The position numbers were made by a program, and so were the translations under genes. The notes below the pieces were generated by a model. The model ran no database searches. It was not told the origin of the DNA and worked only from the letters and a program-made list of their open reading frames with translations. Source: Leptonemataceae bacterium (GTDB lineage: Bacteria; Spirochaetota; Leptospiria; Leptospirales; Leptonemataceae). From it: a stretch of 64,000 nt of DNA. The DNA is taken from assembly GCA_965227295.1 (NCBI GenBank), contig OZ245742.1, forward strand, positions 2,304,001-2,368,000, in the 5' to 3' direction. This document shows, piece by piece, positions 2,197 through 63,839 of this stretch (the stretch's first letter is position 1; every line of letters begins with the position of its first letter).

Positions 2197-2290
2197 AAGA
2201 TTCGCATGATCAGAACACCGTTACGATTTTTTAGAACACGCCCCGCCCGGACTGCGTCAAAGCCGGGAACGTTCTCTGGGAGTCCTGAAT

Positions 2291-3040: not shown

Positions 3041-3066
3041 ACAACCGGCGTCCGGCTATGCGAAAC

Positions 3067-4167: not shown

Positions 4168-4173
4168 GCTAAC

Positions 4174-9828: not shown

Positions 9829-9836
9829 GAGCCTTC

Positions 9837-45088: not shown

Positions 45089-45604
45089 ATGGGGCGATTC
45101 TCTCAAATGTCCGCTGTGTCGCTGTTTGCGGCAGTCCTGGTGTGTGCTCCGTTCGGCGCGCTCTTCGCCGCGGATGAGGCCGTGGACCCGTTTCTGCACG
45201 CCCAGGTGGCCGAGTTCCTGGCCGGGGAAAATCTCCCCGCGGACGACCTCTCGCTCCGCACGGACATCGACACCGAGCTGGACGAGGAGTTCGACGCGGC
45301 CTTCGAACAGTACCGCAAACTCCGCGCGCTCGTGGACCGCGAGGCCGAAGACGAGCAACGCAAAGAATCGTGGGGCTGGCAGTCGGGGTCCGCGCCGTTC
45401 GCGCTCGGTATCTTCGGCGACTCCGTGCCGTTTGCCATGCCGCCGCCTGCATCGCGGGCGCTCTTAGCTGAATCTCACACGTACTTAAGCAACTTCTCTT
45501 TCGCGGACGCGCAGGTTCTCGCCGCGATTCCGCTCCGGCCGGATGTGCCGGATCATCTTCGTAATTATCTGGCGAGGCTCCAGCACGCGGGGCCCGTTCA
45601 CTAA
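45089..45604 (+). CDS. secreted hypothetical protein upstream of the giant toxin
   Basis: Signal peptide ending ALFA; acidic helical body; 19 bp before the giant gene. Confidence 0.65.
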   Translation: MGRFSQMSAVSLFAAVLVCAPFGALFAADEAVDPFLHAQVAEFLAGENLPADDLSLRTDIDTELDEEFDAAFEQYRKLRALVDREAEDEQRKESWGWQSGSAPFALGIFGDSVPFAMPPPASRALLAESHTYLSNFSFADAQVLAAIPLRPDVPDHLRNYLARLQHAGPVH

Positions 45605-45623
45605 CTTTCTACGAGTAAACTCT

Positions 45624-48600: not shown

Positions 48601-51600
48601 GCGCGCAGGCGCAACTGGAGACGTTGCTGGATCGCGCGCTCACGAGCGGGCCGATTCTTACGGATGCAACGTTGACCGGGGACGCGCGGAGTGCGGCCCT
48701 CGCGACGATCACGGCGCAGAAAGACGAACACACGGCCGTGAAGGCGGAAGCGCTCGCGGCGATCGAGTCCGTGGACGCGGGTTTCGAGGCGCTGGTGGAG
48801 GCCTTTACGAATCACGGTGAACGGTTGGGCGAGTATCGCACGGCCCTCGGGGAACGCAATCTGGCCTACCGTGAGGCGGGGGATTTCTTAACCGAACTGC
48901 ACGAGAACTTACGCGGCAGCCTCGCGTCCCAGCGTTCGCAACTGGGTTTTCTGCTGGATGAGAACGCGGACGAGGCGTTGCTCGAATCCATGGACGCGGA
49001 ACACCGGCGGGGCCTCGCGACGGCGGCGGCGGAGACGAACCTGCGGGCGATCGAACTGCTCGAGGGTTATCTCGGCGTGGATCGTGACGTGAATGTGCTG
49101 TTGATTGAAGTGACCGAGGACATCAACCATCGTCTGGCAAACTATGACGCCACGGACGCGGGCCAGCGGCGGGAGCTGACGGCGCTGCGGGCCGTGGAGC
49201 AATACGTGGGGCGGAGCGCCAATCTGCTGGCGAATCTGTCGGAGGACGAGCGCGCGGAGTTGCTCGCGGGCCTGGCGGACGAGCGGGACTTCGCGATCGC
49301 TCTGCGGGATTTCTACGTTTCGGACGGCGTGATGGACGACGCCGAACAACTGGCGATTCGCAGCGGCGGCAACCCGGAAGAACGGCGGTTGCTGTCGGCG
49401 TACTTCAACCCGCCGGCGCAGATGATGTTCGGTGAGGCCGCCTTCGGCGCGACGGCGGCGGAATCGTACTTAACTTCTCAACACCGTAGGTTTGCGGAGC
49501 AGGTGCGCGCGGGGCTGATCCAGAGCGCGATTACGGATCGGTACCACGAGGAGCAGGAAAACAAGATCACCGGCCTGATCCAGGAAATGAAAACGGCCGT
49601 GCCGGCGCTCGCGAGTCTGTCCGCCTCGCAGCTCTACAACGACAGCGAACCGGTGGATCCGAGCGGCCTCGCTCACGATACGGACGCAGAGGACGCGCGC
49701 CGGGCGATTCTCGCCTCGCTTTTGAGTGCGGCGGGCAGCGAAACCGGCGATCGTCTGACGGCGTTGTATGACATTGCGCAGCTGGAAACGATCTACGGGC
49801 CGGCGATTGCCGTGGAAGTGTACACGGACCTCGCCCGGGTGGTGGACGGTTACGGGAGCGCCGGGCAAGAACTGGTGCGCGCGTCCCAGGCGATTGTCGA
49901 CCAGGCCGCGGAGTTCGACGCCGAAGTGGACGCGCTCTTAGATGCGTACGATGCAAAGTTAAGCTACGAAGGGCAACGGGATCGCGTGGCGGCGGCGCTG
50001 GCGCTTTTGGAGTACGAGGACCCGGCGAGCGGTTCGACGGCAGCCGTGGGGCAGGCGGACGTGGACGCGCACGTGGCGAACCTCGACATTCCCGGCGGCG
50101 ATGATCCGGCGGTGGATCATCCCGCGGACTGGACGCCGGTGGACGATACCGACGGGGACTCGCCGGGAGATGCGGGCTGGGATCCGTCGTACGAAACGGA
50201 AGTTTTTGTGCAGCCGTACGCGGGGCTCGACGCGAGCGAACTGGAACAGGATCGCGACGACCTGAATACAGCGCTCGCCGATTGGGACAACAAACGCACG
50301 GAGCTGGATACGGCGATTGCGACGTACCGCGCGGCGAAGGCGACGTTCGACGCGTTCGTGGCGGCGAACCCCGGCAGCGAGGGCACGCCGGCCTACGAGG
50401 CCGAGATTACGACCTATGCCGCAGCCGTGAACGATATGTACTTCGCGTACCGGGAGCATAATAACTTTTTTACGGCTCTCGAGTTCGTGGCGGAACGCAG
50501 TGCGGCTTCCGGGGCGACATTTTTCGCGGCGGCGCAGGCGATCGATGCGAGCGCCGTGGTAACCACGGAAGAGTCGGCGTTCTTAAGTGCGGCGGATGTA
50601 TTGTTAACGGAGCGGGACGACCGGGCGCAGACGGAGTTTGATTTTACGCAGGCCGCGGTGGACGTGGGCACGGCGCGCAACCGTTACACGGAGGCGGAGA
50701 GCGCGCTCGCGACGGAAACGACCGAGGCGGATGATTTTATTGCGGACCTGGGGGACCGGGTGGATGTACGGATCAGCGCGGTGAGCACGGACGCGGTGAG
50801 CGCGAATGAGTTGATCGACGTGCTTGCGGAGCTGCGCCGGTTTTTTACGGAGAAGCAGGCGCGCGGGGAGGAGATCAATCCGACCATCGTGAATTCGCTG
50901 GAAGCGGCCGGCCAGGTGCTGGACGAACTGGCAGCGCTCAAGGATTACCAGGCGCGGGGCGCGAGCGTGAGCGTGGAGGATGCGCGGCAGGAACGGACCG
51001 ACGCTCAGGAAGAGAGCGAGCAGATGCAAAAGTTCGGTGAGGTGCTGTTAGAGCTACAGCAGTTCATTGCGAACACGGAGGCGGCCGGCGCCGGCCTGCA
51101 CGAGCAGGGCGCGAAGATCAAAGAGCTGCTCGCGAAGTACGAGAAGGCTAAAGACGATTACGGCAGCGTGTATACGTTCAGCGCCGAAGTGGAAGACGCG
51201 ATGACGCTCTTGCGCGATCACGCCTGGGCGCAGCACAAACGGCAACTGGTGGACGCGTATCTTGCAAAGCGCGGGCAGCTGAGTGTGGACGAGTTCATGG
51301 AGGACGTGGTGGAGGGCCGCTTCTTTAGCCAGCCGGTGAACCCGAATCAGACGGAAGCGCCGACAGTAACGTTCGGCGGCGGGGTTGCGCCGGAAGCGGA
51401 AGAAATCAGCGGCGATTTCCTGGGCCAGACCCTCGACGCGGCGCAGCTAAGTGAGGTTCGCGCACTGTTAAGCGAGTACGCGGCGCGGGCGCGGATCGAC
51501 GACGCCGGCATTGTGGCGGACATTGACGCGTTGCTGGCGACGGAAGACGCGGCGGTGCGCGCGGCGATCGAAGACGAGGCACTGGTGACGGTCTTTAATA

Positions 51601-54600
51601 ACTTCAACAGCGCGAACGCCGTGGGGGTGGGCAATCATGCGCAGCTTCCGGATGTTTTGAAAAACTACGGCCTCGTGAGCGCGTATGAAAGTTACGCGGT
51701 GTTGCTGCAACTGGATCTGGACGACGCCGACGACCGTACGCTGGCGATGCAACGCTTCCTGGACACGATGACGACGGAGAACCGCGCGGCGGCGGAGCCG
51801 GTCTTAAGTGAATATCTTACGAACTTTGACGCGCGAAACCCTTCGTTTTACCTGCCGGCCGAATTGAAAGCGCGGCACGCGAAAGAGCGCTACTTTGCGA
51901 TGCGCTACACGGACGAGCTGAGCCCGGGGGACGTGACGGCGCTGAACGACTGGCTGGCCGCGGAGAAATACGACGCGGGCGTGAGCGGGGCCGTGGGTGA
52001 AGCGGTGCGCACGGCGTACATTCTGGATAACTACTATGGTGAGAGCGCCGACGATTACTTAGATTCTATTGATGCGGACTTAACGGCGCTCACCGGGACG
52101 GGGGTGAATGCGACGGAACGACAGGCGTTCGTGCTGGGGCTCACCGGATTGTTGAGCGCGGCCGGGGACGCGTACGTGGAGCCGGAGGCGATGATCGCGG
52201 GGGAGGTTGTGTATGACAACTTTACGTTCGCGGACAACACGCAGGCGTTGAAAGAGGCGCTGCGCAACGAACAGATCGCACACACGGTGGAGCTGGCCGC
52301 GGCCGAACGCGCGGCGGTGCGGGCCGGGTACTTTTATGATTATAAGAGCGGGGCGCGGACGATTCGTTCGTTCAAGAGTTATGTGAACATCGGCCTGGGC
52401 GGTCTCGCGGAACCGGACGAGGCGACGCAGATCGCGGGGCAACTGGCGGAGCTGGAACATCAGGCGGAGCACCGCCTGGGAGCGTTCGTGGGTTTGGTGG
52501 AGCAGTACTCGAGCTTCGCGTACAATCCGGACCCGGCGTACGACAACAACCTGAACATCCGCGATACGATCGCCGAGATCAATACGGACTTTGTGCTGCA
52601 AGACGGGCAGTACGCGAAGAACCCGGACGGCAGCTACGTTTTTGAAGGCGGCTTAAATAACACTCAGGTGCGGTTAGACGAGTACGTGAACGCGAACACG
52701 GCGGCGTTTACGGCGGCGGACCGCGACGCCTACGCCCAGGTGCAGAAGTGGGAAGGGCAGGTGGATCAACTGCAGGAGACGATCGTTACCGCCGGCCAGG
52801 AGGCGGTGATCGTGAGCAACGCCCTCGGGACCTACGGCTCGGACGTGGGGGCGATAACGAACGCATTGCAAGGCGCGCGGGAGGAGTTTGAGCAACGCGA
52901 GAGAGACTTCGGCGAGGCGGAAGAGGAGTACGAGAACGCCGAAGACAACCTGCGCGACGCGCGCAACGCGTATCGGGCGCAGCAGGAGCTGGTGCTCACG
53001 AATTACAATGCGCTAAAGTCGGCCGAGGAAGAGTTAGACCGGCTGAGCGGGCTGCATGATCAGGCGGTGCTGGAGGAGTACTCGCAGCAGACGAACGAGC
53101 AGGGCGAGGTGGAGACGATCGGCGATACACTGGAAACGGTGCAGGCGCGTTATGAAGCGGCGGACGAGGCTTATCAGACTCAACTGGAAAAGATCCAGGC
53201 GCTCGAAGAGAAGTTAGACCGGCAGGTGACGAAGGCGGAGCTGGCCGCGGCGGCGGAGGTGCAGACGAATCGCCAGGAGACGGAAGACTGGGCCATGCAC
53301 GCGATGCGGTTCTCGCGCGCCGAATCTATATTAGAAGATAAGATCAACGATCTGCATGTGCAGATCGACAACCTGAAAGGCCAGATGGAGTACGCGGGCC
53401 TGGGGCAACACTTTGATATATCGCGGAGTCGCTTCGTCGGCAAACGCCAGGACCTCGACGGATACCTGGATTACGGGAGCGCGGCCTACATCGACAGCGA
53501 ACGCATGCATCGCGCACGGTACCGACACTTAGAAGGATTTTTGCGCGGGGAGATTGGTCCGTGGGATTTGATTTACAGTTCGCTCGGCGGCATCTACGCG
53601 AAACCGTATCTGGGAGTGACGATCAACTTCACGGAGGCAAGCGGCGGAATATATTACACGGATGTACCGGGCTGGAGCGAGGGCCTGCGCGTAAACAGCG
53701 GCGGACGGTACGATCTCTACGGCTTTGCGCAGGAGTACAACCAGGGCAAGACCGGTACGAATGATATTCTTTTGAATCTTGTAAAGGATCAGTTTCCCAC
53801 CGCCTGGGACGGCGAGGCATGGGCGTATGCTCGCGCAACGACGGACGCGGCGAGTTTCAACAACGGCATGACGGCGTTGTACAACAGCGACGTCGCGGGA
53901 CAGGCGGTGATCTACGCGGCGATGGGCGCGGCGGGCCTGGGATTTCTGTTTCAGTTGTATGCGAAGGATACGGCTTTTAAGGATCAACTGGATCGTGCGA
54001 TGGATCGGCTGTACGGATTGCCGACGACGAACCTGGTGCAACAGGGCAACGAACTGAAGAACCTGTACGCGGAACTGCACCGGCTCACGGACATAGACAG
54101 CGTGGAGAAACTGCGGGACGTGCTGGACGATCCGGAGTACGGCTTAACCGCGGATGATGTGGCGTTAATCCAGGGCAGCGGAACGTTAGATCAACTGATC
54201 TGGAAGGGCGGCAAAGAGGACTTAAGCCTGGATGATGTGGTGGGCGCGAACGGCCTGCCGATTGCGCAGGATAAGGCGATTCATGATGAGTTTGGATTCT
54301 ACGTGCGGGACGGGGAGTTCAGCGCGGGGAACATAACCGCGAATCCGACGGGGACGGACAAGTACGGACGGAGAACCGCACTGATGGTGAGCGCCGATGA
54401 ATTCACGGACGCGCTTGCCGCGATGAGCCAGACACAGTATGAGATCGAACGCGAAGAGTATTTCAGAGCCGCGGAGACAATGACGGAAGACCGCGTTCAG
54501 GCGGACACGGTGACGATCCTGGATGAACGCGAAGAGTTCTATGGCACGTTGATGCAACAGGCCGCCAGCGTGGGCGTGCAGTTCGAGATGTACCGCGCAC

Positions 54601-57600
54601 TCGCCGAAGACTATCACGGCGAAGGCGGCGTGGTAGACCAGGTGGCGGAGCTGGAGATCCAACAGCGAGTCGCATCCCAGAGACACGAATGGGACCTGCG
54701 CATGGAACAGTTCCGCAAGAAACGCCAGGAGTGGGGTGAAAACATTGCGCAGCTTACGAACGTGGGCGAGCAGAAGTGGAGCGACATGACCACCGAGATG
54801 GCCACGGCATGGAACGAGTGGCGGAAAGACTTCGACGCCGAAGCTAAGGCAGCGGAGGACCTGTACCTCGAACGTATTTCGGAAGCGATTGTAGACGAGC
54901 AAGAGTGGACGCAGGAATTCACGACGCTGGCGGCGCAAGGGACGGATGAGCAGACATTAAGAGAGCTGTACGAAGAAATCAACGCGATGGTGACAAACCT
55001 GAGAAGCGGACTACCGGCGGATATGCAGGTGGACATTAACGCGAACGAGATCCTGAACCGCGTGCTGGCGAACAAACCGGACACGCTGAATGAAAGCGTG
55101 GTGATGGCCGGGGAGTACGCGAACACGCAGATTTTCCTCAATGAACTGAAGGACCAGAACTTCGACAACAGCATCCAGGATCGTTATGATGATCTCAATG
55201 AACGTTACGGAGAAATGGCGCAGCGGCTCGTTAGACTGCAAAGCCTGGATAGTCTGTACGGATTGATTGACCTGTTCGATGAAACGATCGCAGAAGCGAA
55301 CGCCAGATTACAGTTGCAGATGGACCAGAAGATGGGCCAGACGAACTGGGTGAAGATGGGTGATTTGTATACGAAGCAGATCAAAACGGCACAGGCAGTG
55401 CTTACGGGACAGCCGAGCATTCCTGTATTTGCGCCGTCGTTCCACGATTACTTTTACTTAAAGCCGGACCTGCGCAGCGAGGCGGTGGTGAAGGATTCGG
55501 AAGGCAAAGAGTGGAACCTAACAGACACTGAGTCCATATTAGCGGACGGCGGACCGAACAGCGCGGAACTGGAAAGCATGGTGCGGCTTGTGCGCAACAA
55601 ACTGGAGAAGGAGTTCGAGCAAACCTACGATCCGGACGAGGAGGTGGACTACGAGGGCACCAGTGGGTTGGTGTTCATTAACTGGCAACAGGCGCTGGCC
55701 GATGCGAGTGCGGCGGCGATTAACCCCTCCACGTGCAACTTAGCCGAGTCCATGGATGAGTGCGCGCGGAACATTATGCAGTCCGGGTACACCGTGGGCC
55801 TCGTGGAAGGCGGGACGTTTGGACGGCACCACTTCGAGGAGTACTACCGCGCACTGACAATCCGCAATTTCTTCGACCAGATGGAAGCAGACGGTAGAGC
55901 CATGCGCGAGTCTACGGGCGGACGGATGGGGCGGGATTTCGGGACGAATTTGACGGCCTTGCACCGCGGTGCGGTGCGGAACATGAGTTCCGCTCTCGAT
56001 GTGCTGGAACGTAATTCGAAGTACGTCCAGATGCTTCAGGTTGCGAACAGGCAGTTACCGATTGCTCAGGCGCAAATCGGCGCGGCGCGGCGCGGACTGG
56101 ATCAATACGAAGACATGAACCAGCGTGTGCGAGTGGGCCTGAGCAAAGGCTGGCAGCGGAACGACGATGAGATCGATGCGGTGATTAAAGTCGGCGGCAC
56201 GATTGTGGCGGGTGTGCTGTATGCCGTCTCGTTCGTCTTTCCTCCGGCTGCAGCCATCGCCTCCGGTGTTCTTGCGGCAGTAGGTTCGTACTCCGGAGTG
56301 CGCGGTAGCTACGAAGGCGGCACGAAAGGCGCGCTGGCGGGAGCGGCGAGTGTGGTGCCGGCGATCGTTAGTAAAGGTGCGGTGAATACAAACTTAAGCT
56401 ACACGTTTCAGGAGGGCTGGAGTGTCGGTGTGGGCGCGGAGGTTTCGAAAGGCGTCGGCCTTGGTGTGAGCTATTCGGAACAAGCGGGTTGGGGTGGTAG
56501 CATCTCTCTCAGCGGCTCTCAGGGTGTCGGTCTTGATTTCAGCATTGGTGAGCAGGGTCGTTACGGTGTGGGCTTGAGTGTCGGCGGCTTATGGCAGACA
56601 GGGGATGCGAGTGGCGGTGCAGACCTGGGCTGGCGCGTTGGTTACAACACGGGGCCGGAAGGCGAAACCTATAGTGTCGGTCTGACGGGGTATGGCGGAG
56701 AGAAATACGGTCCGAATGGCAACGTCGGTATCGGTGTAACCTACAATCAGAATTTAGGTAACGGCTATTACATTAGTGGCGGAGCGAACGGCGGCGCCGG
56801 GTCCGGTTACTTCGGTGGAACGGCAAGCTGGAACTGGACGCGTTTCGGCGGCAGTTCGGCCACGTTCGGTCTGACGTATAAGCCGCCGCGGCCTGATGAT
56901 GACGGCAGTCCGATCGATACGCCGGAGGAGAAAACGGCGTTGGATATGTTTCTCGCCGCCGCACGGCGTGAGGCCGGTGAGGTCTGGGATGATGTCGGCG
57001 GCGGGCTTGGATGGCTGGGCGAGCAGGTGGCCGGCGGGTTTGGATGGTTGGGTGGTGCCGTTACTGGCGGTCTCGCGAGTGTGGCCGGAGCGCTGGGTTG
57101 GGAGAGTGGTGCGAATTGGATCCGAGGAAAGGGGTACTACGAGAACGCGTTGGTCGGAAATCTCGATTACTTCATGGATACTTCCGACGGGAGGCGAGTA
57201 TACTGGGATCCCGAGAAAGGGGCGTTCTTTACAGAGAATCCCAATGGCAATGGGCTGATCCTGAGCAACGCTCTTGGCGAACCTGAGTATCTTGCCGGGC
57301 CTGGTAGTGAGGTTATGTTTCAGCAAATCCAAAAAGATCCTGAACTAGGTCCCTATGTTCATTACTTAAGAGACCTCTCTCATGAGATTGCGGTTCAGCT
57401 TGGAATTGAACCACCGGAAATGCCCGACCCGAGGGACCCAAACTTTGCGCAGAAATTTGAGGAATGGAAAGATATATTCCGAGCGTGGAAGCATGCTACA
57501 GGTACATCGGATCTTGTTGGGATGACCGGAGGGCCTATAAGGCAGCCGCCAAAATTACTTGACGTTCTCAGAAAGCTTCACACGGCCGAAGGTTGGCGTG

Positions 57601-58256
57601 ATCTAAAGACTTATTTGAAAATCGCCTCAGGATTCGATGACACCAACGGGATGCGAGCACTCTTTGTTGGCTCCAAAGCTCCGAGTCTTCAAGACCTGGC
57701 AATGTTTGCGGCCATGAAAGATTGGAACGTCATTCATAGCGGCGGAACTAGAGTCACATTCGTTGACAGAGCCGGCAAGACTCAGTTGAATGTTCACACA
57801 CTTGCTTTCGAAGGTAAAGAACGAGCTTTTCATCATGTATATAATCGAGATGGAATTCGGGTCGACCCCGTGACAGGGGATGCTATACCCGTGGGAGATT
57901 TTACTGGCCTCAAGGGGGCAAGCCTGGATAAACTGATGCAACGCATTCCTTCTCCGCACGAAGTGCAGGACTGGAGAATTCGAAAATTAACTCCGGACAC
58001 TCACGGTGCCCTTGAGGGCTGGGAGTTTGTATGGCGTGAAAACGGTACAACAAAACGTTTGAGAATTCATTCGCCCGACGTTAAACGATCCGAGCATACG
58101 CATGCGGGTAGTGGTTGGACATTTAGATTGCAAGTAGGTAGACGCTATGTGGATAGCGACGGGCATATTCATGCAGCAGGAATCGGTAATGTGGATAGCC
58201 CGAACTACAATCCCGATGCAATAAATGAGACGCATATTCCGATTTACCTGGATTAA
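45624..58256 (+). CDS. giant (~4,210 aa) secreted polymorphic toxin with C-terminal Ntox30-type RNase
   Basis: Arg-rich extended signal (VFA-QT); acidic coiled-coil body; hydrophobic helices and Gly-rich beta region (~56180-56880); low-GC tip with RIH (58062) and THIP (58230). Confidence 0.85.
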   Translation: MNFRFAFPRSFLSLRRRYRRFARKSRLHRRSLSSFMSLLFLVQFVLAPTGVFAQTFDRLDEDVNKNRIGDYANAVEGADDEDDWNEFVGSGADLLRAEWEYRADLLLEQEVTAGAAREDLEAEKALAREAWEAELDDEIDQRRGRWRARTAAQSLDSLLDDIDYDELVAAVNDANALMFTDADDAATRVAAWDAIAGNRAALAKAAWESQLDAEMAALQSQGVALGAEEQAAFLSELERQRSLAESVYKSEESVFVTSARRKFVTEANAGDDLARALAQSTDPAEIARLLVQQTELEMERLGVLPGDVRFDGVDAQLILTGAGDYQDQVSQALEAGQSAWKSAIDELIARKIGFDEQVAASRQAGENQWATAYTTILDARETWLADVEAQIQRGLEAWDAAESGLAENRQLAEEELARLIESDRREFQEHNRGIGQLVSGASQTLETIVENQRWFQHKIADLQADIVRLNGESESFADGLAIGGTPEWTAWYNAHRTDHTNAEMQERQNRINVYTGELNYWNSLEAEYRQIITDAESVVHDQDMRDGGSGPGYFHDDGTEGDVLLLTATEFELKLARARLAVLEEERSRAKEVYDYALAATKLSAAEIETQLATAKDAYDLAETEYLTELSALNGGGSQSLTRVGLSDESSRAAGETTDLGPTLLDDVNTRAAELETEALELERARTALDNARQAYEQTVKLQVLIQNPQMLSDIGLLSTDPYEVNEDGENEGLRYEIFKAEKDLAEAREKMRQQEKAYVRLLYERETALRSTGFFNQTNERIILHEETKDRLAELSAIIGGGDALEDKLTALAAGTTLTDLYGNQAADALRDRITELADALANAAGPVTSETQNLNTGLGDFGPAHAVLDANFTGAERARLTQYADRVDGVLDALADISGLDWTGLGLPDMRALATSLRDHSTEPGTLAADYSTAFNDLQTELTAYQAYAAANAGAEASADYQARTAAVLIATDEYRLAAARYEQRYQLARSAQAQLETLLDRALTSGPILTDATLTGDARSAALATITAQKDEHTAVKAEALAAIESVDAGFEALVEAFTNHGERLGEYRTALGERNLAYREAGDFLTELHENLRGSLASQRSQLGFLLDENADEALLESMDAEHRRGLATAAAETNLRAIELLEGYLGVDRDVNVLLIEVTEDINHRLANYDATDAGQRRELTALRAVEQYVGRSANLLANLSEDERAELLAGLADERDFAIALRDFYVSDGVMDDAEQLAIRSGGNPEERRLLSAYFNPPAQMMFGEAAFGATAAESYLTSQHRRFAEQVRAGLIQSAITDRYHEEQENKITGLIQEMKTAVPALASLSASQLYNDSEPVDPSGLAHDTDAEDARRAILASLLSAAGSETGDRLTALYDIAQLETIYGPAIAVEVYTDLARVVDGYGSAGQELVRASQAIVDQAAEFDAEVDALLDAYDAKLSYEGQRDRVAAALALLEYEDPASGSTAAVGQADVDAHVANLDIPGGDDPAVDHPADWTPVDDTDGDSPGDAGWDPSYETEVFVQPYAGLDASELEQDRDDLNTALADWDNKRTELDTAIATYRAAKATFDAFVAANPGSEGTPAYEAEITTYAAAVNDMYFAYREHNNFFTALEFVAERSAASGATFFAAAQAIDASAVVTTEESAFLSAADVLLTERDDRAQTEFDFTQAAVDVGTARNRYTEAESALATETTEADDFIADLGDRVDVRISAVSTDAVSANELIDVLAELRRFFTEKQARGEEINPTIVNSLEAAGQVLDELAALKDYQARGASVSVEDARQERTDAQEESEQMQKFGEVLLELQQFIANTEAAGAGLHEQGAKIKELLAKYEKAKDDYGSVYTFSAEVEDAMTLLRDHAWAQHKRQLVDAYLAKRGQLSVDEFMEDVVEGRFFSQPVNPNQTEAPTVTFGGGVAPEAEEISGDFLGQTLDAAQLSEVRALLSEYAARARIDDAGIVADIDALLATEDAAVRAAIEDEALVTVFNNFNSANAVGVGNHAQLPDVLKNYGLVSAYESYAVLLQLDLDDADDRTLAMQRFLDTMTTENRAAAEPVLSEYLTNFDARNPSFYLPAELKARHAKERYFAMRYTDELSPGDVTALNDWLAAEKYDAGVSGAVGEAVRTAYILDNYYGESADDYLDSIDADLTALTGTGVNATERQAFVLGLTGLLSAAGDAYVEPEAMIAGEVVYDNFTFADNTQALKEALRNEQIAHTVELAAAERAAVRAGYFYDYKSGARTIRSFKSYVNIGLGGLAEPDEATQIAGQLAELEHQAEHRLGAFVGLVEQYSSFAYNPDPAYDNNLNIRDTIAEINTDFVLQDGQYAKNPDGSYVFEGGLNNTQVRLDEYVNANTAAFTAADRDAYAQVQKWEGQVDQLQETIVTAGQEAVIVSNALGTYGSDVGAITNALQGAREEFEQRERDFGEAEEEYENAEDNLRDARNAYRAQQELVLTNYNALKSAEEELDRLSGLHDQAVLEEYSQQTNEQGEVETIGDTLETVQARYEAADEAYQTQLEKIQALEEKLDRQVTKAELAAAAEVQTNRQETEDWAMHAMRFSRAESILEDKINDLHVQIDNLKGQMEYAGLGQHFDISRSRFVGKRQDLDGYLDYGSAAYIDSERMHRARYRHLEGFLRGEIGPWDLIYSSLGGIYAKPYLGVTINFTEASGGIYYTDVPGWSEGLRVNSGGRYDLYGFAQEYNQGKTGTNDILLNLVKDQFPTAWDGEAWAYARATTDAASFNNGMTALYNSDVAGQAVIYAAMGAAGLGFLFQLYAKDTAFKDQLDRAMDRLYGLPTTNLVQQGNELKNLYAELHRLTDIDSVEKLRDVLDDPEYGLTADDVALIQGSGTLDQLIWKGGKEDLSLDDVVGANGLPIAQDKAIHDEFGFYVRDGEFSAGNITANPTGTDKYGRRTALMVSADEFTDALAAMSQTQYEIEREEYFRAAETMTEDRVQADTVTILDEREEFYGTLMQQAASVGVQFEMYRALAEDYHGEGGVVDQVAELEIQQRVASQRHEWDLRMEQFRKKRQEWGENIAQLTNVGEQKWSDMTTEMATAWNEWRKDFDAEAKAAEDLYLERISEAIVDEQEWTQEFTTLAAQGTDEQTLRELYEEINAMVTNLRSGLPADMQVDINANEILNRVLANKPDTLNESVVMAGEYANTQIFLNELKDQNFDNSIQDRYDDLNERYGEMAQRLVRLQSLDSLYGLIDLFDETIAEANARLQLQMDQKMGQTNWVKMGDLYTKQIKTAQAVLTGQPSIPVFAPSFHDYFYLKPDLRSEAVVKDSEGKEWNLTDTESILADGGPNSAELESMVRLVRNKLEKEFEQTYDPDEEVDYEGTSGLVFINWQQALADASAAAINPSTCNLAESMDECARNIMQSGYTVGLVEGGTFGRHHFEEYYRALTIRNFFDQMEADGRAMRESTGGRMGRDFGTNLTALHRGAVRNMSSALDVLERNSKYVQMLQVANRQLPIAQAQIGAARRGLDQYEDMNQRVRVGLSKGWQRNDDEIDAVIKVGGTIVAGVLYAVSFVFPPAAAIASGVLAAVGSYSGVRGSYEGGTKGALAGAASVVPAIVSKGAVNTNLSYTFQEGWSVGVGAEVSKGVGLGVSYSEQAGWGGSISLSGSQGVGLDFSIGEQGRYGVGLSVGGLWQTGDASGGADLGWRVGYNTGPEGETYSVGLTGYGGEKYGPNGNVGIGVTYNQNLGNGYYISGGANGGAGSGYFGGTASWNWTRFGGSSATFGLTYKPPRPDDDGSPIDTPEEKTALDMFLAAARREAGEVWDDVGGGLGWLGEQVAGGFGWLGGAVTGGLASVAGALGWESGANWIRGKGYYENALVGNLDYFMDTSDGRRVYWDPEKGAFFTENPNGNGLILSNALGEPEYLAGPGSEVMFQQIQKDPELGPYVHYLRDLSHEIAVQLGIEPPEMPDPRDPNFAQKFEEWKDIFRAWKHATGTSDLVGMTGGPIRQPPKLLDVLRKLHTAEGWRDLKTYLKIASGFDDTNGMRALFVGSKAPSLQDLAMFAAMKDWNVIHSGGTRVTFVDRAGKTQLNVHTLAFEGKERAFHHVYNRDGIRVDPVTGDAIPVGDFTGLKGASLDKLMQRIPSPHEVQDWRIRKLTPDTHGALEGWEFVWRENGTTKRLRIHSPDVKRSEHTHAGSGWTFRLQVGRRYVDSDGHIHAAGIGNVDSPNYNPDAINETHIPIYLD

Positions 58257-58263
58257 TATCACC

Positions 58264-58716
58264 ATGCTTGACCTGGAAGGAATAAGAACTCGCTTCAAAT
58301 CAACTGATCGCGAAGTTCGCATCGCGCAGATTCATACCGTGGGAGATCATATCTACCCTCGCGGCGAACCACAGGAGATATATATTGATAACTTTGACGA
58401 AATTATCGATTTCCTAATTGGAGTGGTCGGTTACGAAAAGGATGAGGATGTCCGAGAGGAAGTTTTAACGGCGTTGTTCTATGCTTGCTCTTCCAGTACG
58501 CGAATTGAGAAGCATGACATATCCGCACTCCTTGAGGTCCTTTCCGACCTGAGTGACCAATCGCTGGAGTATGCCCTATCCTGCATTGGCTTTACGCATG
58601 ACCCTCAGCATTTGGAAACTCTAAGGCGGTTCCTGGATCATACGTCGCCAATCGTAATGGACGCTGCACACGAAGCTATTTTTGAGATCGAAAATAGAAA
58701 GAACCGGGAGCTGTAA
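58264..58716 (+). CDS. putative immunity protein, HEAT-like helical repeats
   Basis: 7 bp after the toxin stop; acidic, 150 aa; EDVREEVLTAL, ALSCIG, LDHTSPIVMDAAHEAI; low GC. Confidence 0.75.
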   Translation: MLDLEGIRTRFKSTDREVRIAQIHTVGDHIYPRGEPQEIYIDNFDEIIDFLIGVVGYEKDEDVREEVLTALFYACSSSTRIEKHDISALLEVLSDLSDQSLEYALSCIGFTHDPQHLETLRRFLDHTSPIVMDAAHEAIFEIENRKNREL

Positions 58717-58783
58717 TGCCGAAAACCTATCTCAGGTGACCTCCCGCCATTCATAACGATCATGACTCCCTCGCACGTGTCGC

Positions 58784-59066
58784 CGATTGTAGTTGCAAAC
58801 GTAGATTGCTCGTCGCATACTTGCGAAAATGTGCCCAACAGGCACACCGAAATGTCTGATGTAATGGAGACGTTTCGGATGAGATCAGAGGATCTTTAAC
58901 AGGCAAGCAGTGATAGTCTGAACGGACTGACTGCGGCGAGAAGAAACAGCAGAGGTTCGCCTCTGCCGAAACGATATGCTGAATTCCGCACACGTGTGCG
59001 GAATTCGCCGCTCCGTAAGCGCGGACCGTTCAGTTCTTTGCGGCTAATATCTGATTCACAAGCGTT
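58784..59066. repeat. 283-bp cassette-boundary repeat, copy A
   Basis: Collinear with 63443-63724; contains GCAGAGG-TTCG-CCTCTGC and a perfect 26-bp palindrome at 58981-59006. Confidence 0.92.
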
Positions 59067-62000
59067 GTGCTGGCGAACAAACCGGACACGCTGAATGAAA
59101 GCGTGGTGATGGCGGGAGAATACGCGAACACGCAGATTTTCCTCAATGAACTGAAGGACCAGAACTTCGACAACAGCATCCAGGATCGTTATGATGATCT
59201 CAACGAACGTTACGGGGAAATGGCGCAACGACTCGTTAGACTGCAAAGCCTGGATAGTCTGTACGGATTGATTGACCTGTTCGATGAAACGATCGCAGAA
59301 GCGAACGCCAGATTACAGTTGCAGATGGACCAGAAGATGGGCCAGACGAACTGGGTGAAGATGGGTGATTTGTATACGAAGCAGATCAAAACGGCACAGG
59401 CAGTGCTTACGGGACAGCCGAGCATTCCCGTGTTTGCACCGTCGTTCCACGATTACTTTTACTTGAAGCCGGACCTCCGCAGTGAAGCGGTGGTGAAAGA
59501 CTCGGAAGGCAAAGAGTGGAACCTAACAGACACTGAGTCCATATTAGCAGACGGCGGACCGAGCAGCGCGGAACTGGAAAGTATGGTGCGGCTGGTGCGC
59601 AACAAGCTGGAGAAAGAGTTCGAAGCGACATACGATCCGGATGAGGAAGTGGACTACGAAGGAACGAGTGGGCTGGTGTTTATTAACTGGCAACAGGCCC
59701 TTGCGGATGCCAGCGCGGCCGCGATTAACCCATCCACCTGTAACTTAGCAGAAAGCATGGATGAATGCGCCCGGAACATTATGCAGTCCGGGTATACCGT
59801 GGGCCTTGTGGAAGGCGGGACGTTTGGACGGCACCACTTCGAGGAGTACTACCGCGCACTGACAATCCGCAATTTCTTCGACCAGATGGAAGCAGACGGT
59901 AGAGCTATGCGTGAAAGTACCGGCGGTCGCATGGGGCGGGACTTCGGGACGAATTTGACGGCCATACACCGCGGTACGGTGCGAAACATGGACTGGGCGT
60001 TGAATACTCTGGAACGTAATTCGAAGTACGTCCAGATGCTTCAGGTTGCGAACAGGCAGTTACCGATTACTCAGGCGCAAATCGGCGCGGCGCGGCGCGG
60101 GCTGGATCAATACGAAGACATGAACCAGCGCGTGCGGGTGGGACTGAGCAAAGGCTGGCAGCGGAACGACGATGAGATAGATGCGGTGATTAAAGTGGGC
60201 GGCACGATTGTGGCGGGTGTGCTGTATGCCGTCTCGTTCGTCTTTCCTCCGGCGGCAGCCGTCGCTTCCGGAATCTTAGCAGCAGTAGGTTCGTACTCCG
60301 GAGTGCGTGGAAGTTATGAAGGCGGCACAAAGGGCGCGCTGGCGGGAGCGGCGAGTGTGGTGCCGGCGATCGTTACCAAAGGTGCGGTGAATACAAACTT
60401 AAGCTACACGTTTCAGGAGGGCTGGAGCGCCGGTGTGGGCGCGCAGGTGACAAAGGGCATTGCCGCCGGTGTGAATTACTCCGAACAGGCCGGTTGGGGC
60501 GGCAATGTTAGCATCGGCCTCGGCGATTCACCGTTCGCTCTTGATTTGAGCGTGGGTGAATACGGCCGGTACGGCGCGGGGCTGACGTATAACTTTATTC
60601 AGTCGCCGAATGACGTCAGTAATCAACTGACCAGCGGCTTACGCGTGGGTTTTAATCAGGGGCCGGAAGGTAATACGTATAGCCTGGGGCTGAATGCTTC
60701 ACTGGTGGATACCGTGAACAGCACGAGTGGGAGCCTGGGTCTGGGGCTGACTTACAACAAGAACTTCGGAACCGGCTTTTATGTGAGCGGCGGGGCCGGC
60801 GGCGGTACGCATAGCGGCGGTCTCGGTACAACAGCGCAGTATAACTGGAGCAGATTCGGGGAGGACTCGACGACATTCGGTCTGACGTACAGCAAGCCGC
60901 GGGATTGGGATGGTTCTGACGGTCCGAATACTCCTGCGCAGAAGAATCTGCTCGACCTGTTTTTGGCGTCCGGCACAGGGCGGACGATGCGGGAGTTCTT
61001 TGGGGATGTCAGCCGGATGGGTATGACCGACGCGGAGAAAGAACAGGAGTATCAACAGTACCTTGCGGCGAAAGAGAAGGCGGAGTTCAACCGATTGCTG
61101 AGTCTGGAGGGTTTCTCCAGCATTGGAGATGCCGCGTTGATGGGCGTCGCCATTCTTCGTAACAACGACTTTGAGCCGGATTCCAAGCAAGGGAATCATG
61201 AACAATACGAAGAGATGGTGGATCGCCTGGAGCAGCGGAAGCTGGAGAAGGGCGATGAGCTATCGAAACTCGACGTCGCCGCTGTTGCGCAAGAGATGGC
61301 CGGGGAGGCCGAACTCAGCATCAATTGGATCGATACGCACGAGCGAGCTGTTGCTATTAAGCAGCAGGATATTCGGGAAGAGAGGTTGGCGAATGCGCCT
61401 GCGGATTCTTCCGAGGAAGGTGTTGCTTTCTACGGAGAAGGGGGCAGTGGATCCTGGCCATCACCTCAGCCAACCATTGTCGGTCCCGGTTATCACATTC
61501 CCGGGCCCGATATTAGCTTTCCTGATTTATGGGATAATCCGAATACGAAAGATGATAACTCAAACCCGTGGCAGTTGGATTGGAATCTTGACCGTTCGAA
61601 CGAAATTCCGGATTGGGGGGACTATGGAGCTACGGGAGAATGGGAAGGATACGATGGGGGCGGGGGCCGCTTTGGTGGTCACGGAGCTTCTTATGGAGTT
61701 GAAGATAAGGAATGGGATGTAGTATTCTTCCAGACTAACGTTACCTTCGGTATTGGCGTTGGCGGCTCAGCCGGATGGGGCGGGGCAATTGACCTCGGAA
61801 ATTTGAATTATGCCTTTGGGACACCAGCAGGTATCTATTATGGTTTGGATGACGGCCTTTCCGGAACAATCGGTATGTCTAATGTGCAAAACCCAAGAAG
61901 TCTCTTTACTAATGCCACAACCGATACTTCAATGGTTTTTCTAGTCGGTGGTAACCATAAGGTCATCCATGAGACCCATGATCCCAATACTGCGAGGCAT

Positions 62001-62123
62001 GCCTTAGGCGTTGTCATTGGCGCCAGAGTTGCCGCAACAACAACGCCAGGGTTTCAGACAGTCGATCCATGGAGCGCCTATCTAAAATGGAGGGAGGATT
62101 TGCGTCAATCAATGATGCAGTAA
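59067..62123 (+). CDS. orphan (5'-truncated) toxin module with alternative C-terminal tip
   Basis: Near-identical to 55062-~56440 at offset 4005, diverged homology to ~60968, then unrelated; no signal peptide or clear RBS. Confidence 0.85.
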   Translation: MLANKPDTLNESVVMAGEYANTQIFLNELKDQNFDNSIQDRYDDLNERYGEMAQRLVRLQSLDSLYGLIDLFDETIAEANARLQLQMDQKMGQTNWVKMGDLYTKQIKTAQAVLTGQPSIPVFAPSFHDYFYLKPDLRSEAVVKDSEGKEWNLTDTESILADGGPSSAELESMVRLVRNKLEKEFEATYDPDEEVDYEGTSGLVFINWQQALADASAAAINPSTCNLAESMDECARNIMQSGYTVGLVEGGTFGRHHFEEYYRALTIRNFFDQMEADGRAMRESTGGRMGRDFGTNLTAIHRGTVRNMDWALNTLERNSKYVQMLQVANRQLPITQAQIGAARRGLDQYEDMNQRVRVGLSKGWQRNDDEIDAVIKVGGTIVAGVLYAVSFVFPPAAAVASGILAAVGSYSGVRGSYEGGTKGALAGAASVVPAIVTKGAVNTNLSYTFQEGWSAGVGAQVTKGIAAGVNYSEQAGWGGNVSIGLGDSPFALDLSVGEYGRYGAGLTYNFIQSPNDVSNQLTSGLRVGFNQGPEGNTYSLGLNASLVDTVNSTSGSLGLGLTYNKNFGTGFYVSGGAGGGTHSGGLGTTAQYNWSRFGEDSTTFGLTYSKPRDWDGSDGPNTPAQKNLLDLFLASGTGRTMREFFGDVSRMGMTDAEKEQEYQQYLAAKEKAEFNRLLSLEGFSSIGDAALMGVAILRNNDFEPDSKQGNHEQYEEMVDRLEQRKLEKGDELSKLDVAAVAQEMAGEAELSINWIDTHERAVAIKQQDIREERLANAPADSSEEGVAFYGEGGSGSWPSPQPTIVGPGYHIPGPDISFPDLWDNPNTKDDNSNPWQLDWNLDRSNEIPDWGDYGATGEWEGYDGGGGRFGGHGASYGVEDKEWDVVFFQTNVTFGIGVGGSAGWGGAIDLGNLNYAFGTPAGIYYGLDDGLSGTIGMSNVQNPRSLFTNATTDTSMVFLVGGNHKVIHETHDPNTARHALGVVIGARVAATTTPGFQTVDPWSAYLKWREDLRQSMMQ

Positions 62124-62130
62124 GAGAAAG

Positions 62131-62439
62131 ATGGTACAAATCTTGGCGCTAATATTCGTAGCTTTGGTGATTGCCATTCTTGGTGTGTCGACGTATTGGT
62201 TTCACCATTATTCAAAGCTGGTGCGAGAGCATATGCGCGAGAATGGGTATGAAATGGAAGGGTACATTTCTATCGGTTACCCCTGGCTCTATTTGCAATA
62301 TAGCATGTATCTTGAAGAAAATAATAAGAAGCTCCCCACGGAGCTATATCGGTGCCTTTGGATCCCATTCGTCGGTGTCGTCCTCTGTATGCTATTCACG
62401 TTTGGTTTCATACATCTGGTAACGACTGTCTTTCGTTAA
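62131..62439 (+). CDS. putative membrane immunity protein of the orphan tip
   Basis: 7 bp after the orphan stop; 102 aa with two terminal TM helices; low GC. Confidence 0.7.
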   Translation: MVQILALIFVALVIAILGVSTYWFHHYSKLVREHMRENGYEMEGYISIGYPWLYLQYSMYLEENNKKLPTELYRCLWIPFVGVVLCMLFTFGFIHLVTTVFR

Positions 62440-62463
62440 TTCCTCAGTGGGAGTGATGTTCGT

Positions 62464-62706
62464 ATGAACGAAGAGAATATTGACTTTTATGCTAATCAGA
62501 TTGCGGTAAATATGAATCCGCTTGAAGTAGAGATTGATGCAAAGATTATCAGATCAGATGGCAATGAGGGGGGCCGGCTATTCTTGCGATTGCCGCCAGC
62601 GCTGGCACTAGGATTAGTTCATGGTCTCTCTGCTCAGCTTGATGCATTCCAGGAGCAATTTGGTGAGATTAAACTCCCGGAAGGCTTAGTTCAGAGAAAA
62701 AAATGA
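62464..62706 (+). CDS. DUF3467-like small protein
   Basis: FYAN...EID...LPPALA...FQEQFGEI pattern; GGGAG upstream. Confidence 0.65.
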   Translation: MNEENIDFYANQIAVNMNPLEVEIDAKIIRSDGNEGGRLFLRLPPALALGLVHGLSAQLDAFQEQFGEIKLPEGLVQRKK

Positions 62707-62717
62707 CGGTTCTGAGG

Positions 62718-63245
62718 TCATAGTTTCCGCTCTACCTTCTGTAGAGCGGACTTGATGCCAGACTCGAATTGACGTTTTTTGAAAGCAGGTACGAGGGTGG
62801 TTGCGATCACATCGTTGAAATAGTCGTTCCGAATTGATTGTGCGAGTTTCCGATCTGCTTCAATTCGAATTTTTCCATCACGAGTGGCAATCACAATAAG
62901 CATGGACATATTCTCCGCCGGAATGTGCCCAGCTGAGTCCCACTGTCTGGCAGCTGTTAAAGAGAAGTCCTCAATTGGGATACCGTTCGTAGTTTCTACA
63001 ATAAGAATAGCCGATGATAAACGTTTGTTTTTTTCCAACTTTTCGATAGTGGATTCAATGCGAAGGATGCTATCGGCTGCGAGAATCTCTGCGTAATCGT
63101 TCACAGATCCCTGTACTGTGGTCGCAAGTTGCTGTGAATTGATCGGAGAGTCCTTTGCTTCTGGGAAGAAATTGCACTGCACACGTGGGAAGCAACTCAC
63201 AATGAATGCAAGGACAATAATGAGAGCGACTCTGCTGCGGATCAT
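62718..63245 (-). CDS. TPM domain (YgcG-like) protein, possibly lipoprotein
   Basis: VNDYAEIL, IEDFS, LIVIATRDGKIRIE, PAFKKRQFESGI; start set at MIRSRVALII. Confidence 0.8.
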   Translation of the reverse strand: MIRSRVALIIVLAFIVSCFPRVQCNFFPEAKDSPINSQQLATTVQGSVNDYAEILAADSILRIESTIEKLEKNKRLSSAILIVETTNGIPIEDFSLTAARQWDSAGHIPAENMSMLIVIATRDGKIRIEADRKLAQSIRNDYFNDVIATTLVPAFKKRQFESGIKSALQKVERKL

Positions 63246-63366
63246 TAGTGTTTTATCGATGCTCTCCTTTACTTCGTCAACTGGAATTGGTCTATGAAAA
63301 TTGAAAATCTTTTTGGATGTGTCGAATAGGGTGTAAGCTTGAAATACTCGTCGACGCCTCCAGGCG

Positions 63367-63444
63367 GCCCCACGCCGGGTTATCCCTTGCGAGTCTTTGA
63401 ATGAGCCGGATTTCTTCGACTGGAATTCGCGGCCGGCGCGGTCG
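63367..63444 (-). mobile_element. transposase/integrase remnant
   Basis: RPRIPVEEIRLIQRLARDNPAWG resembles the RP...LIxxxAxxNPxWG segment of rve-core transposases. Confidence 0.5.
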
Positions 63445-63724
63445 ATTGTAGTTGCAAGGGAAGATTGCTCGTAGCCTACTTGCGAAAATGTGCCCAACAG
63501 GCACGCCGGAATGACTGCTGTAACAGAGACATTTCGGATGAGATCAGGGGATCTTTAACAGGCAAGCAGTGATAGTCTGAACGGACTGACTGCGGCGAGA
63601 AGAAACAGCAGAGGTTCGCCTCTGCCGAAGCGATATACCGAATTCCGCACACGTGTGCGGAATTCTCCCTTCGAGAGTCGGGGCCGCTGAGTTCTTTGCG
63701 GCTAATGTCTGATTCACAAGCGTT
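63443..63724. repeat. 282-bp cassette-boundary repeat, copy B
   Basis: Direct repeat of 58784-59066; palindrome at 63640-63665. Confidence 0.92.
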
Positions 63725-63839
63725 AGCGATGCGGAGGGTGGCGCGCAGCGCCAGTCTCGCGTCTTCGCGAGACCGCAGCGAAGCGGAGCCCGTAGCAGCG
63801 CGACGGCCCGCCGCCTCCGCGGCGCGGCGGGCCGGAACG
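63721..63839 (+). repeat. REP-like structured element interrupted by the intron
   Basis: CGTTAGCGATGCGGAGGG...AGCGAAGCGGAGCCCGTAGCAGCGCGAC-hairpin-GAACG, lacking the terminal CCC. Confidence 0.75.

Follow-up and report, generated by a model that had tools for sequence, protein, structure and literature searches.

A giant polymorphic toxin gene of a Leptonemataceae bacterium followed by a putative array of orphan toxin/immunity cassettes

Introduction

Arrays of orphan toxin and immunity genes are a means by which many bacteria keep and change weapons against close relatives. To our knowledge, nearly all experimental knowledge of such arrays comes from the contact-dependent growth inhibition (CDI) and Rhs systems of proteobacteria. 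Here we describe a locus in the genome of a Leptonemataceae bacterium (order Leptospirales; GCA_965227295.1, contig OZ245742.1) in which a giant gene with a predicted toxin tip is followed by 5′-truncated copies of its own end, each with a different tip. The analysis started from a stretch of 64,000 nucleotides (nt), genome positions 2304001–2368000, referred to as the window. Coordinates are window positions, those beyond 64000 being window-equivalent, unless genome positions are indicated.

The published work is cited here from excerpts of the respective papers. According to these, tip replacement by standalone cassettes is the defining feature of polymorphic toxins (Zhang et al. 2012, PMC3482391). 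For CDI it has been described that an incoming cassette displaces the resident tip, and that insertion sequence (IS) genes occur between the cassettes of orphan arrays (Ruhe et al. 2016, PMC4927057); a discussion of switching also names the price, namely that the resident immunity gene is lost (Poole et al. 2011, PMC3150448). In Salmonella, recombination between main and orphan Rhs modules was demonstrated over a 522-bp region of 95% identity (Koskiniemi et al. 2014, PMC3967940).

The locus presented here shares with polymorphic toxins in general, as far as the excerpts portray them, a constant body, a variable C-terminal toxin and standalone cassettes with adjacent (here candidate) immunity genes. 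As in Rhs and CDI orphan modules, a full-length toxin gene is followed by co-oriented, 5′-truncated fragments that retain a conserved upstream stretch, each fragment ends in an unrelated tip with its own (here candidate) immunity gene, and transposase genes lie between the modules. In contrast to Rhs and CDI, the main protein contains neither a Pfam haemagglutinin nor an RHS repeat family, and no VENN or PxxxxDPxGL demarcation is present; divergence starts inside or after a predicted barrel. A further difference is that the modules are separated by a structured element of about 285 nt, here called B, together with a repeat resembling repetitive extragenic palindromic (REP) sequences; no such spacer was found described in the excerpts. 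The same cassette logic is thus encountered in a rare, unnamed carrier family of the Leptospirales. The locus is of a known kind in a new, unstudied carrier family, and its mechanism, as the excerpted literature has it, is the textbook model for orphan cassettes of polymorphic toxins and not a new one.

Two head-to-tail units open an array of five

The main gene occupies 45543–58256 on the plus strand, an open reading frame (ORF) of 4237 amino acids (aa) with an Ntox30 tip according to Pfam. In an earlier note on this DNA, two head-to-tail units had been proposed behind its 5′ part, each consisting of carrier segment, tip, immunity or cargo genes and a boundary repeat; blastn and the reading frames show that these units are real. 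The conserved carrier segment of the main gene (A1, 55062–56494, plus strand, aa 3174–3651), which is repeated in every orphan, matches 59067–60499 (A2) with 91.858% identity over 1437 columns. Both ends show an offset of 4,005 nt, constant as the note had stated, while the length of the shared segment has to be corrected from about 1.37 kb to the measured 1.43 kb. A repeat search returned the first 300 nt of A1 and A2 as 98% identical with a spacing of 4005. Both segments are in one reading frame (4005 = 3 × 1335) and the proteins are colinear. The boundary repeat B1 (58782–59066, plus strand) corresponds to B2 (63438–63724, plus strand), with 90.493% identity over 284 columns between 58784–59066 and 63443–63724. 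B1, which lacks the REP-like tail, ends at 59066 and A2 starts at 59067, leaving no gap. Outside these shared parts the units do not align, and neither do their tips; at the protein level, weaker homology continues past 56494 for about 460 nt, up to about 56960.

The array extends past position 64000, the last of the window, and the two units merely open it. A search of the genome with orphan 2, followed by self-comparison of 52 kb, revealed five units: the main gene, three intact orphans (2, 3 and 4) and one carrier fragment. Copies of A begin at 55062, 59067, 66993, 73612 and 77514, the orphan copies (59067, 66993, 73612 and the 153-nt fragment at 77514) having 86–96% identity to the main gene. 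Orphan 2 (59067–62123, plus strand) consists of A2, a diverged barrel region and tip 2 in an intact frame of 1018 aa. Orphan 3 has an intact frame of 1468 aa reaching to 70217; its homology to the main gene (65752–69050, 95.7% to main-gene positions 53809–57119) lies in a 3312-nt match that begins at 65752 and includes the A copy at 66993. In orphan 4, A spans 73612–74787 (86% to the main gene) and the frame of 984 aa, likewise intact, extends to 76410. The fragment of unit 5 (77514–77666) is interrupted by another IS. Its junction has been copied whole: a 580-nt stretch of B, REP-like repeat and A is duplicated in units 4 and 5 with 90.5% identity.

The copies diverged as working genes and recombined

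For analysis of selection, the four copies of the gene end were aligned by codons and Nei–Gojobori counts were obtained over 479 codons of the A segment. Comparison of the main gene with orphan 2 gave 90.8 synonymous and 30.2 non-synonymous differences, which corresponds to a synonymous rate (dS) of 0.345, a non-synonymous rate (dN) of 0.028 and a dN/dS of 0.08. The ratio was 0.028 for the main gene and orphan 3, and 0.14 for the main gene and orphan 4. Such low values indicate that most of the divergence arose while both sequences belonged to working genes. The earlier note had called the differences mostly synonymous and patchy and had derived the orphan from a functional allele, not from a decaying copy. 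The counts bear out the first point, and the third agrees with a dN/dS of 0.08 at a dS of 0.34, the intact 1018-aa frame and the unrelated tips. The note had named about 59240–59420 as sparse and about 59620–59790 as dense, and patchiness is evident from bins of 90 nt: among the 121 differences at 1437 sites, none falls into the two bins of 55242–55421 (59247–59426 in unit 2), and 13 and 15 fall into those of 55602–55781 (59607–59786).

After the carrier region the four copies diverge. In the 154 codons directly following 56494, the main gene and orphan 2 differ with a dS of 1.81 and a dN of 0.54, and the main gene and orphan 3 show zero differences. Past A, the carrier end comes in two sequence types, one in the main gene and orphan 3, the other in orphans 2 and 4.

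The recombination tests proposed together with the dN/dS analysis gave clear signals. The longest identical run between the main gene and orphan 2 is 197 nt, and between the main gene and orphan 3, with 138 differences at 3315 sites, it is 690 nt and ends exactly at 57119, where the tips diverge; no shuffle out of 2000 reached either length. At 149 sites variable in a three-way comparison, orphan 2 is singled out 87 times, the main gene 32 times and orphan 3 28 times, with all three different at 2 sites. Runs of the same type extend to 19, 8 and 6 sites, lengths attained by 15, 7 and 64 of 20000 shuffles, respectively. Furthermore, A1 and A2 differ at 7 sites in the first 360 nt and at 114 in the other 1077 nt. 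The mosaic distribution of sites and the identical tracts show that main gene and orphans have exchanged sequence by gene conversion or crossing-over. Judged by these alignments, the copies are mosaics of each other and some of the exchange between main gene and orphans is recent. The sequence evidence that the copies had been functional alleles and recombined recently is unusually clear. Together with a shared body with diverging ends, an Ntox30 C-terminus and 5′-truncated orphans, these recombination signatures identify the locus as one of the polymorphic toxin type.

Main gene, tips and candidate immunity genes

The likely start of the main gene is M28 at 45624, in agreement with the database gene call of 4210 aa. 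Reading of the protein suggests an N-terminal signal or anchor segment and then a body with a high content of A, L, E and D and a length of about 3500 aa, which we infer from its composition and from weak SMC hits to be helical. Searches of Pfam and NCBIfam with the main protein gave no family but Ntox30, apart from the weak SMC-like matches. Behind A1 follows the diverged carrier end with glycine-rich beta-hairpin repeats up to an LDMFLAA motif (56495–56960, plus strand), and then tip 1 (56961–58256, plus strand), which consists of a linker that orphans 3 and 4 also possess as far as 57119 and of the Ntox30 domain at aa 4143–4234 of 4237 (nt 57969–58244; expect value (E) 1.2e-24, 87 bits compared with a cut-off of 25). 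Ntox30 has been described as an all-beta, predicted metal-independent RNase with RxH, R and THIP motifs and with spirochaetes among its hosts (PMC3482391, in excerpt). Tip 1 carries RIH and THIP motifs and, as an Ntox30 domain, is a predicted RNase. The export routes listed for Ntox30 in the same excerpts are the type II, VI and VII secretion systems (T2SS, T6SS, T7SS) and TcdB/TcaC with RHS repeats; in contrast to these, it is found here on a giant, putatively helical carrier with a predicted barrel.

No Pfam family was assigned to tips 2, 3 and 4. For tip 2, nothing meaningful was found in Pfam at E up to 1, and its best score in the ESM Atlas, 0.83, was in the range reached by shuffled proteins.

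Each tip is followed by small co-oriented ORFs, which by analogy with known cassettes are candidate immunity genes. Behind tip 1 lies a HEAT-repeat (HEAT_2) gene (58264–58716, plus strand; ORF of 163 aa from 58225, likely start M14) and behind tip 2 a membrane-like gene of 102 aa (62131–62439, plus strand), in which two hydrophobic segments were recognized by reading; these would fit a membrane-acting tip 2. A WD40 ORF of 326 aa (70217–71197) follows orphan 3, and an ORF of 177 aa (76407–76940) follows orphan 4. Unit 2 contains two more genes, a small ORF of 80 aa (62464–62706, plus strand) with a weak DUF3467 match (E 0.015) and, as its cargo, a TPM-domain lipoprotein-like gene on the minus strand (62718–63245) with a likely start MIRSRV at 63245. 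A longer frame of the TPM gene, a minus-strand ORF that reaches 63497 and overlaps B2, is probably not real.

A predicted barrel in front of the tip

In the protein, the A segment corresponds to a conserved alpha/beta domain and hydrophobic helices, and a predicted barrel begins in it with its first strands. An AlphaFold model of orphan 2 built from 20 sequences reached a mean predicted local distance difference test score (pLDDT) of 51.5, with values of 75–90 for residues of about 40–200 and 250–285 and of 25–35 in tip 2. In this model, residues 439–612 (about 60381–60902) form a 12-stranded beta-barrel, whose counterpart in the main gene lies at about 56376–56960. The closest structure was EstA (3kvn; Z 16.3, root-mean-square deviation (rmsd) 2.5 Å, 165 residues), followed by LpxR (Z 16.2), KdgM (Z 15.8), AIDA-I (4mee; Z 15.6) and NalP (1uyo; Z 14.4), so that the 12-stranded barrels as a group gave Z 14.4–16.3 with rmsd 2.5–3.1 Å over 164–171 residues. 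These scores support the fold class of the predicted barrel only, as the values for LpxR and for the porins KdgM and NanC are just as high. According to the model, the remainder of the barrel is supplied by each cassette in a version of its own, along with the tip, which would presumably cross the outer membrane.

The model resembles type V autotransporters in its predicted 12-stranded barrel and in the hydrophobic helices ahead of it. It differs from them by the absence of a Pfam Autotransporter match and by at least 400 aa of tip after the barrel, which is therefore not terminal. The topology corresponds neither to the classical type Va nor clearly to the inverse type Ve. With its position just upstream of the tip, the predicted barrel may belong to an export route of spirochetes that is as yet unstudied.

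The A domain (55062–55931) modelled alone reached a pLDDT of 73.6. Its comparison with the PDB gave no informative match, the best hits being designed helical bundles (Z 7.6). Among 14 homologues, invariant motifs include G..GG.FG..HHF (here VGLVEGGTFGRHHF) and KDSxGKEWDL, and a catalytic or self-processing role of the domain is conceivable.

Other toxin and cassette systems were considered for the locus as well. A CdiA/CdiB (type Vb) system was rejected, as Pfam reported only Ntox30 and neither a two-partner secretion (TPS) domain nor haemagglutinin repeats in the main protein, and no POTRA/ShlB-type transporter that could act as CdiB partner was present among 8 neighbouring ORFs scanned upstream. 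An Rhs/YD-repeat toxin was rejected because no RHS repeat family was found in the main protein or orphan 2 at E up to 0.01. An integron, with an IntI tyrosine recombinase and attC sites at the cassette ends, does not apply either: the 28 ORFs scanned around the array contain no tyrosine recombinase, only rve transposases and the reverse transcriptase (RT) of a group II intron, and the units are gene fragments, not whole promoterless genes as in integron cassettes, with a B element that at E up to 5 has no Rfam match beyond a chance one.

How the array may have been built

We consider it likely that at this locus a giant polymorphic toxin gene is followed by an array of orphan toxin/immunity cassettes, built and shuffled by recombination and keeping silent tips as a reserve. 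The main gene would encode a secreted or anchored carrier composed of a conserved domain, hydrophobic helices, a 12-stranded barrel of the outer-membrane type and a variable tip. Cassettes from diverged alleles would have recombined repeatedly into the 3′ end of this gene, with a homologous left crossover in the carrier segment and an illegitimate right join upstream of the resident tip, and each event would have displaced the previous tip downstream as an orphan. Homology-facilitated illegitimate recombination exists as a mechanism. Later, gene conversion and unequal crossing-over between A and B repeats may have shuffled the array. If CDI and Rhs are a guide, the orphan immunity genes would widen protection, and homologous recombination between A1 and an orphan A would load the orphan tip in frame, deleting what lies between. 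The region of homology available for this, 1.43 kb at 92%, is longer than the one used in Salmonella Rhs. As 4005 is a multiple of three and the proteins are colinear, a crossover between A1 and A2 would join tip 2 in frame; excision of 4,005 nt with such a fusion had been predicted in the earlier note, and offset and frame agree with it. Loading of tip 2 would cost these 4,005 nt, that is tip 1, immunity gene 1 and B1, so that the price discussed for CDI, loss of the (here candidate) resident immunity gene, applies to this locus too.

The joints between B and the carrier are informative about how the cassettes arrived. Three types occur in the array: B directly attached to the equivalent of 55062, B and REP-like repeat with the intron and 24 nt attached to the equivalent of 53809, and B and REP-like repeat with 8–12 nt attached to the equivalents of 55281/55289. 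Different joints argue for separate illegitimate events and against a single site. The 7 and 114 differences in the two parts of A look like a duplicated resident stretch followed by a donor-versus-resident comparison, a pattern that later conversion could mimic.

Several observations weigh against this explanation. B is invariably located 5′ of an orphan, and no copy follows the last cassette of two of the arrays of this genome (loci II and III); this position fits displacement and equally fits a 5′ leader of the orphans. The barrel part of the orphan 2 model (residues 440–610) has a pLDDT of only about 55–73. No relative of tip 2 was detected on longer proteins (6629 candidates of 1783–5000 aa) or in metagenome contigs, where none of 68 pattern matches was confirmed. 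Among 1.84 billion representative proteins, orphan 2 has 43 relatives, all found via the carrier end and none via the tip. The usual support, an orphan tip residing on a full-length gene elsewhere, is therefore missing for tip 2, fused or free. Finally, in a collection of 15 billion proteins all four proteins were single-member clusters from this contig only.

The note had put forward a different route, the integration of a circle of about 4 kb. In such a model, a circular molecule consisting of carrier segment, tip, immunity gene and B would enter by one Campbell-type crossover in A or B, with the reverse reaction excising it. The topology is as expected: B1 abutting A2 is just the joint that a circle would carry, recombination between A copies or between B copies inside the array would release such circles, and B, common to four arrays at 77–93% identity, could be a portable homology arm. 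The same topology results, however, when a new cassette is inserted into the main gene and the old one is displaced. Moreover, the carrier is truncated at the equivalents of 53809, 55062 and 55281/55289 and the REP-like repeat is present at some of these joints only, so that a separate illegitimate closure would be required for every circle. The donor/resident hybrids that a crossover in A would leave as A segments should differ along their full length, which contrasts with the 7 in 360 and 114 in 1077 observed, although gene conversion could blur this pattern. No site-specific recombinase gene is present among the 28 ORFs scanned, and in a literature search no paper was seen to propose circular intermediates for toxin cassettes, the sole match, known from an excerpt, concerning island excision. 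With three joint types and no recombinase gene found, displacement is the simpler account; a circle appears unlikely to us, and we prefer serial displacement with later conversion and unequal crossing-over.

Less probable still is a local tandem duplication of the gene end with subsequent divergence, in which the orphan would be a decaying copy. The head-to-tail layout with constant offset would be compatible with it, and the junction of units 4 and 5 was clearly copied locally. However, neither the tips nor the ORFs downstream of them are related between units, no orphan frame is broken, and the dN/dS of 0.08 differs from the value of about 0.5 or more expected under free drift of one copy. 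The saturated barrel region (dS 1.8) next to the A segment (dS 0.34) also indicates a recombination boundary and not uniform ageing. We regard as the least probable explanation that two strains with different tips were collapsed by the assembler into a false tandem. Repeats of 1.4 kb at 92% can mislead assemblers, and no public contig shown bridges the joint of B1 and A2: in the Logan contigs, the three listed joints have sides of 28–40 nt and map to paralogous A/B copies. On the other hand, the genome is a single contig of 5.94 Mb, four further units of the array each possess unique sequence, and loci of this architecture are present at three more places in the genome as well as in further Leptospirales. 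In addition, contigs of two sequencing runs hold the unique parts of both units at a depth similar to that of the flanking carrier, a measure that cannot rank parts. These runs, from one study, provide short Logan contigs that break at repeats, and neither a deletion of 4,005 nt nor a circle would be visible in them. A third run with the same species label gave no match to the stretch.

A bolder reading, which we consider unlikely, would be that the cassettes are self-contained export-and-kill modules, each with a carrier end and barrel of its own, a tip and an immunity gene and with B at its boundary as homology arm and/or RNA switch. Such modules would move between the arrays of different carriers, the giant paralogs and a 1862-aa PT-HINT paralog of this genome, perhaps as excised circles that reintegrate by a single crossover. 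If true, this would amount to an integron-like cassette economy that operates on homologous recombination without a dedicated integrase.

Element B, the REP-like repeat and the group II intron

The core of B comprises about 285 nt and occurs in 7 copies in the genome, 77–93% identical to the B2 query. All are located within four toxin arrays, among them that of a distant PT-HINT paralog of 1862 aa, and are co-oriented with the toxin genes. Besides B1 and B2, the array contains B3 with its REP-like repeat (73196–73599) and B4 with its REP-like repeat (76997–77505, the B match itself being listed at 77103). Compared with shuffled sequence, the predicted fold of B is far more stable, with z values of −4.84 (plus strand) and −4.80 (minus strand). 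In the consensus structure of 83 pairs, 96.4% of the cells are paired, with many conserved G-U pairs on the plus strand, and double changes were seen in 3 of the 83 pairs among the 7 closely related copies, a covariation that is suggestive of a conserved structure. B1 holds a perfect palindrome of 26 nt (58981–59006). Indels of 1 and 2 nt between the copies argue against a conserved reading frame.

Searches for relatives of B gave no match in Rfam at E up to 5 besides a chance match to a small nucleolar RNA (snoRNA), none by blastn in the 41 genomes of its own family and none with an nhmmer profile against 16 loci from relatives at E up to 10; for an invariant motif of 30 nt, neither genome contigs nor metagenome contigs gave a match. 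By its predicted folding, B is a non-coding element with structure, and these searches place it nowhere but in the four toxin arrays of this genome. Candidate roles are those of a terminator, leader, processing site or recombination substrate, and the toolkit of polymorphic toxins would gain a new component should B turn out to act in regulation or as a recombination module.

Simpler assignments of B were rejected. Overlapping minus-strand ORFs that would make it part of a neighbouring gene are artefacts, as the TPM gene most likely starts at 63245 and the other ORF crosses the intron. A promoter-like sequence (TTGCAA-17 nt-CATACT), conserved by eye, scores 8/12 and was not called by a promoter scan. 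A terminator-like hairpin called on the minus strand lacks its T-run in 3 of the 7 copies.

The palindrome of 26 nt was encountered twice more without the rest of B, at genome positions 523400–523577 and 529794–529971, both times about 20 nt upstream of a partial REP-like repeat. This repeat, 115 nt long with a GC-rich hairpin at its end (63725–63839 behind B2, plus strand), has 104 blastn high-scoring segment pairs genome-wide, 46 of them of at least 80 nt. Copies lie directly 5′ of orphans 3, 4 and 5 and, over the toxin arrays as a whole, of the majority of orphans.

Directly behind the repeat of unit 2, a group II intron of 1888 nt (63840–65727, plus strand in the window) is inserted, with matches to the Rfam models of D1–D4 and domain V and an RT/maturase of 471 aa (64275–65690); orphan 3 lies beyond it. 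A second copy with 100% identity is located at genome positions 2020597–2022484. Both copies are inserted directly after the GC-rich hairpin of a REP-like repeat, the joint reading ...ACG followed by GTGTGCCC, which resembles introns that target hairpin or terminator motifs. IS genes encoding rve transposases, one of them at 71233–72303, are likewise situated between the cassettes.

Spacers of comparable design were observed in relatives. In one Leptospirales genome (G135), a different element of about 370 nt is repeated before each orphan, and its REP-like part recurs just 5′ of orphans in two others (G080 and G074). A conserved spacer ending in a REP-like hairpin therefore seems, as far as these alignments go, to be a general feature of Leptospirales arrays.

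Carrier family, paralogs and distribution

Two full-length paralogs of 4422 and 4367 aa, each with its own orphans, are encoded in the genome. By tblastn both match aa 2–3868 of the main protein with 62.7–62.8% identity and not beyond; in the stretches compared, they are about 97% identical to each other. The carrier end was found in 26 of 156 genomes of the order, including 2 of 41 in its own family and 23 of 114 in a second family, and in neither of two genomes of the same genus, in which the genes flanking this locus lie megabases apart. The layout of a main gene with orphans was also detected in G135, G080 and G074, with shared segments of 0.8–3 kb and 83–98% identity. Taken from these surveys, the carrier family is rare and restricted to the Leptospirales.

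The named relatives of orphan 2 are Leptospira proteins annotated as ‘hypothetical’ or ‘polymorphic toxin-type HINT domain-containing’. They are homologues of the carrier end in which a PT-HINT domain follows the glycine-rich region, unlike the three giant paralogs of this genome, which are without PT-HINT; the array of the 1862-aa paralog does contain it. Leptospira LA_3725 has been described, in the excerpts, as a large protein that has one transmembrane segment, at its N-terminus, and a pre-toxin domain close to the C-terminus (PMC4751964); it is likened to the present carrier by this described architecture only, not by homology. A literature search, with supplements left aside, yielded no paper on orphan arrays or on this carrier in Leptospira.

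Some further observations concern the surroundings of these loci. A toxin array on the minus strand (genome positions 2276001–2296600), 8–28 kb upstream of the window start, comprises the distant paralog of 1862 aa and then three PT-HINT orphans and small ORFs. Two of its toxin tips contain DUF6973 and one downstream ORF DUF6896, and its units are separated by the REP-like repeat and once by a copy of B. Adjoining the array of locus III, an ORF of 1078 aa (genome positions 5000033–5003269, plus strand) matches Pfam TcA_TcB_BD, the C-terminal TcB-binding domain of the Tc toxin TcA, with E 1.9e-102. Within the window itself, self-comparison revealed a family of direct repeats of about 300–430 nt with 78–92% identity at 1700–4168 and 12316–13372, which sit in and around two large plus-strand ORFs, 4753–9828 (1691 aa) and 9468–12332 (954 aa).

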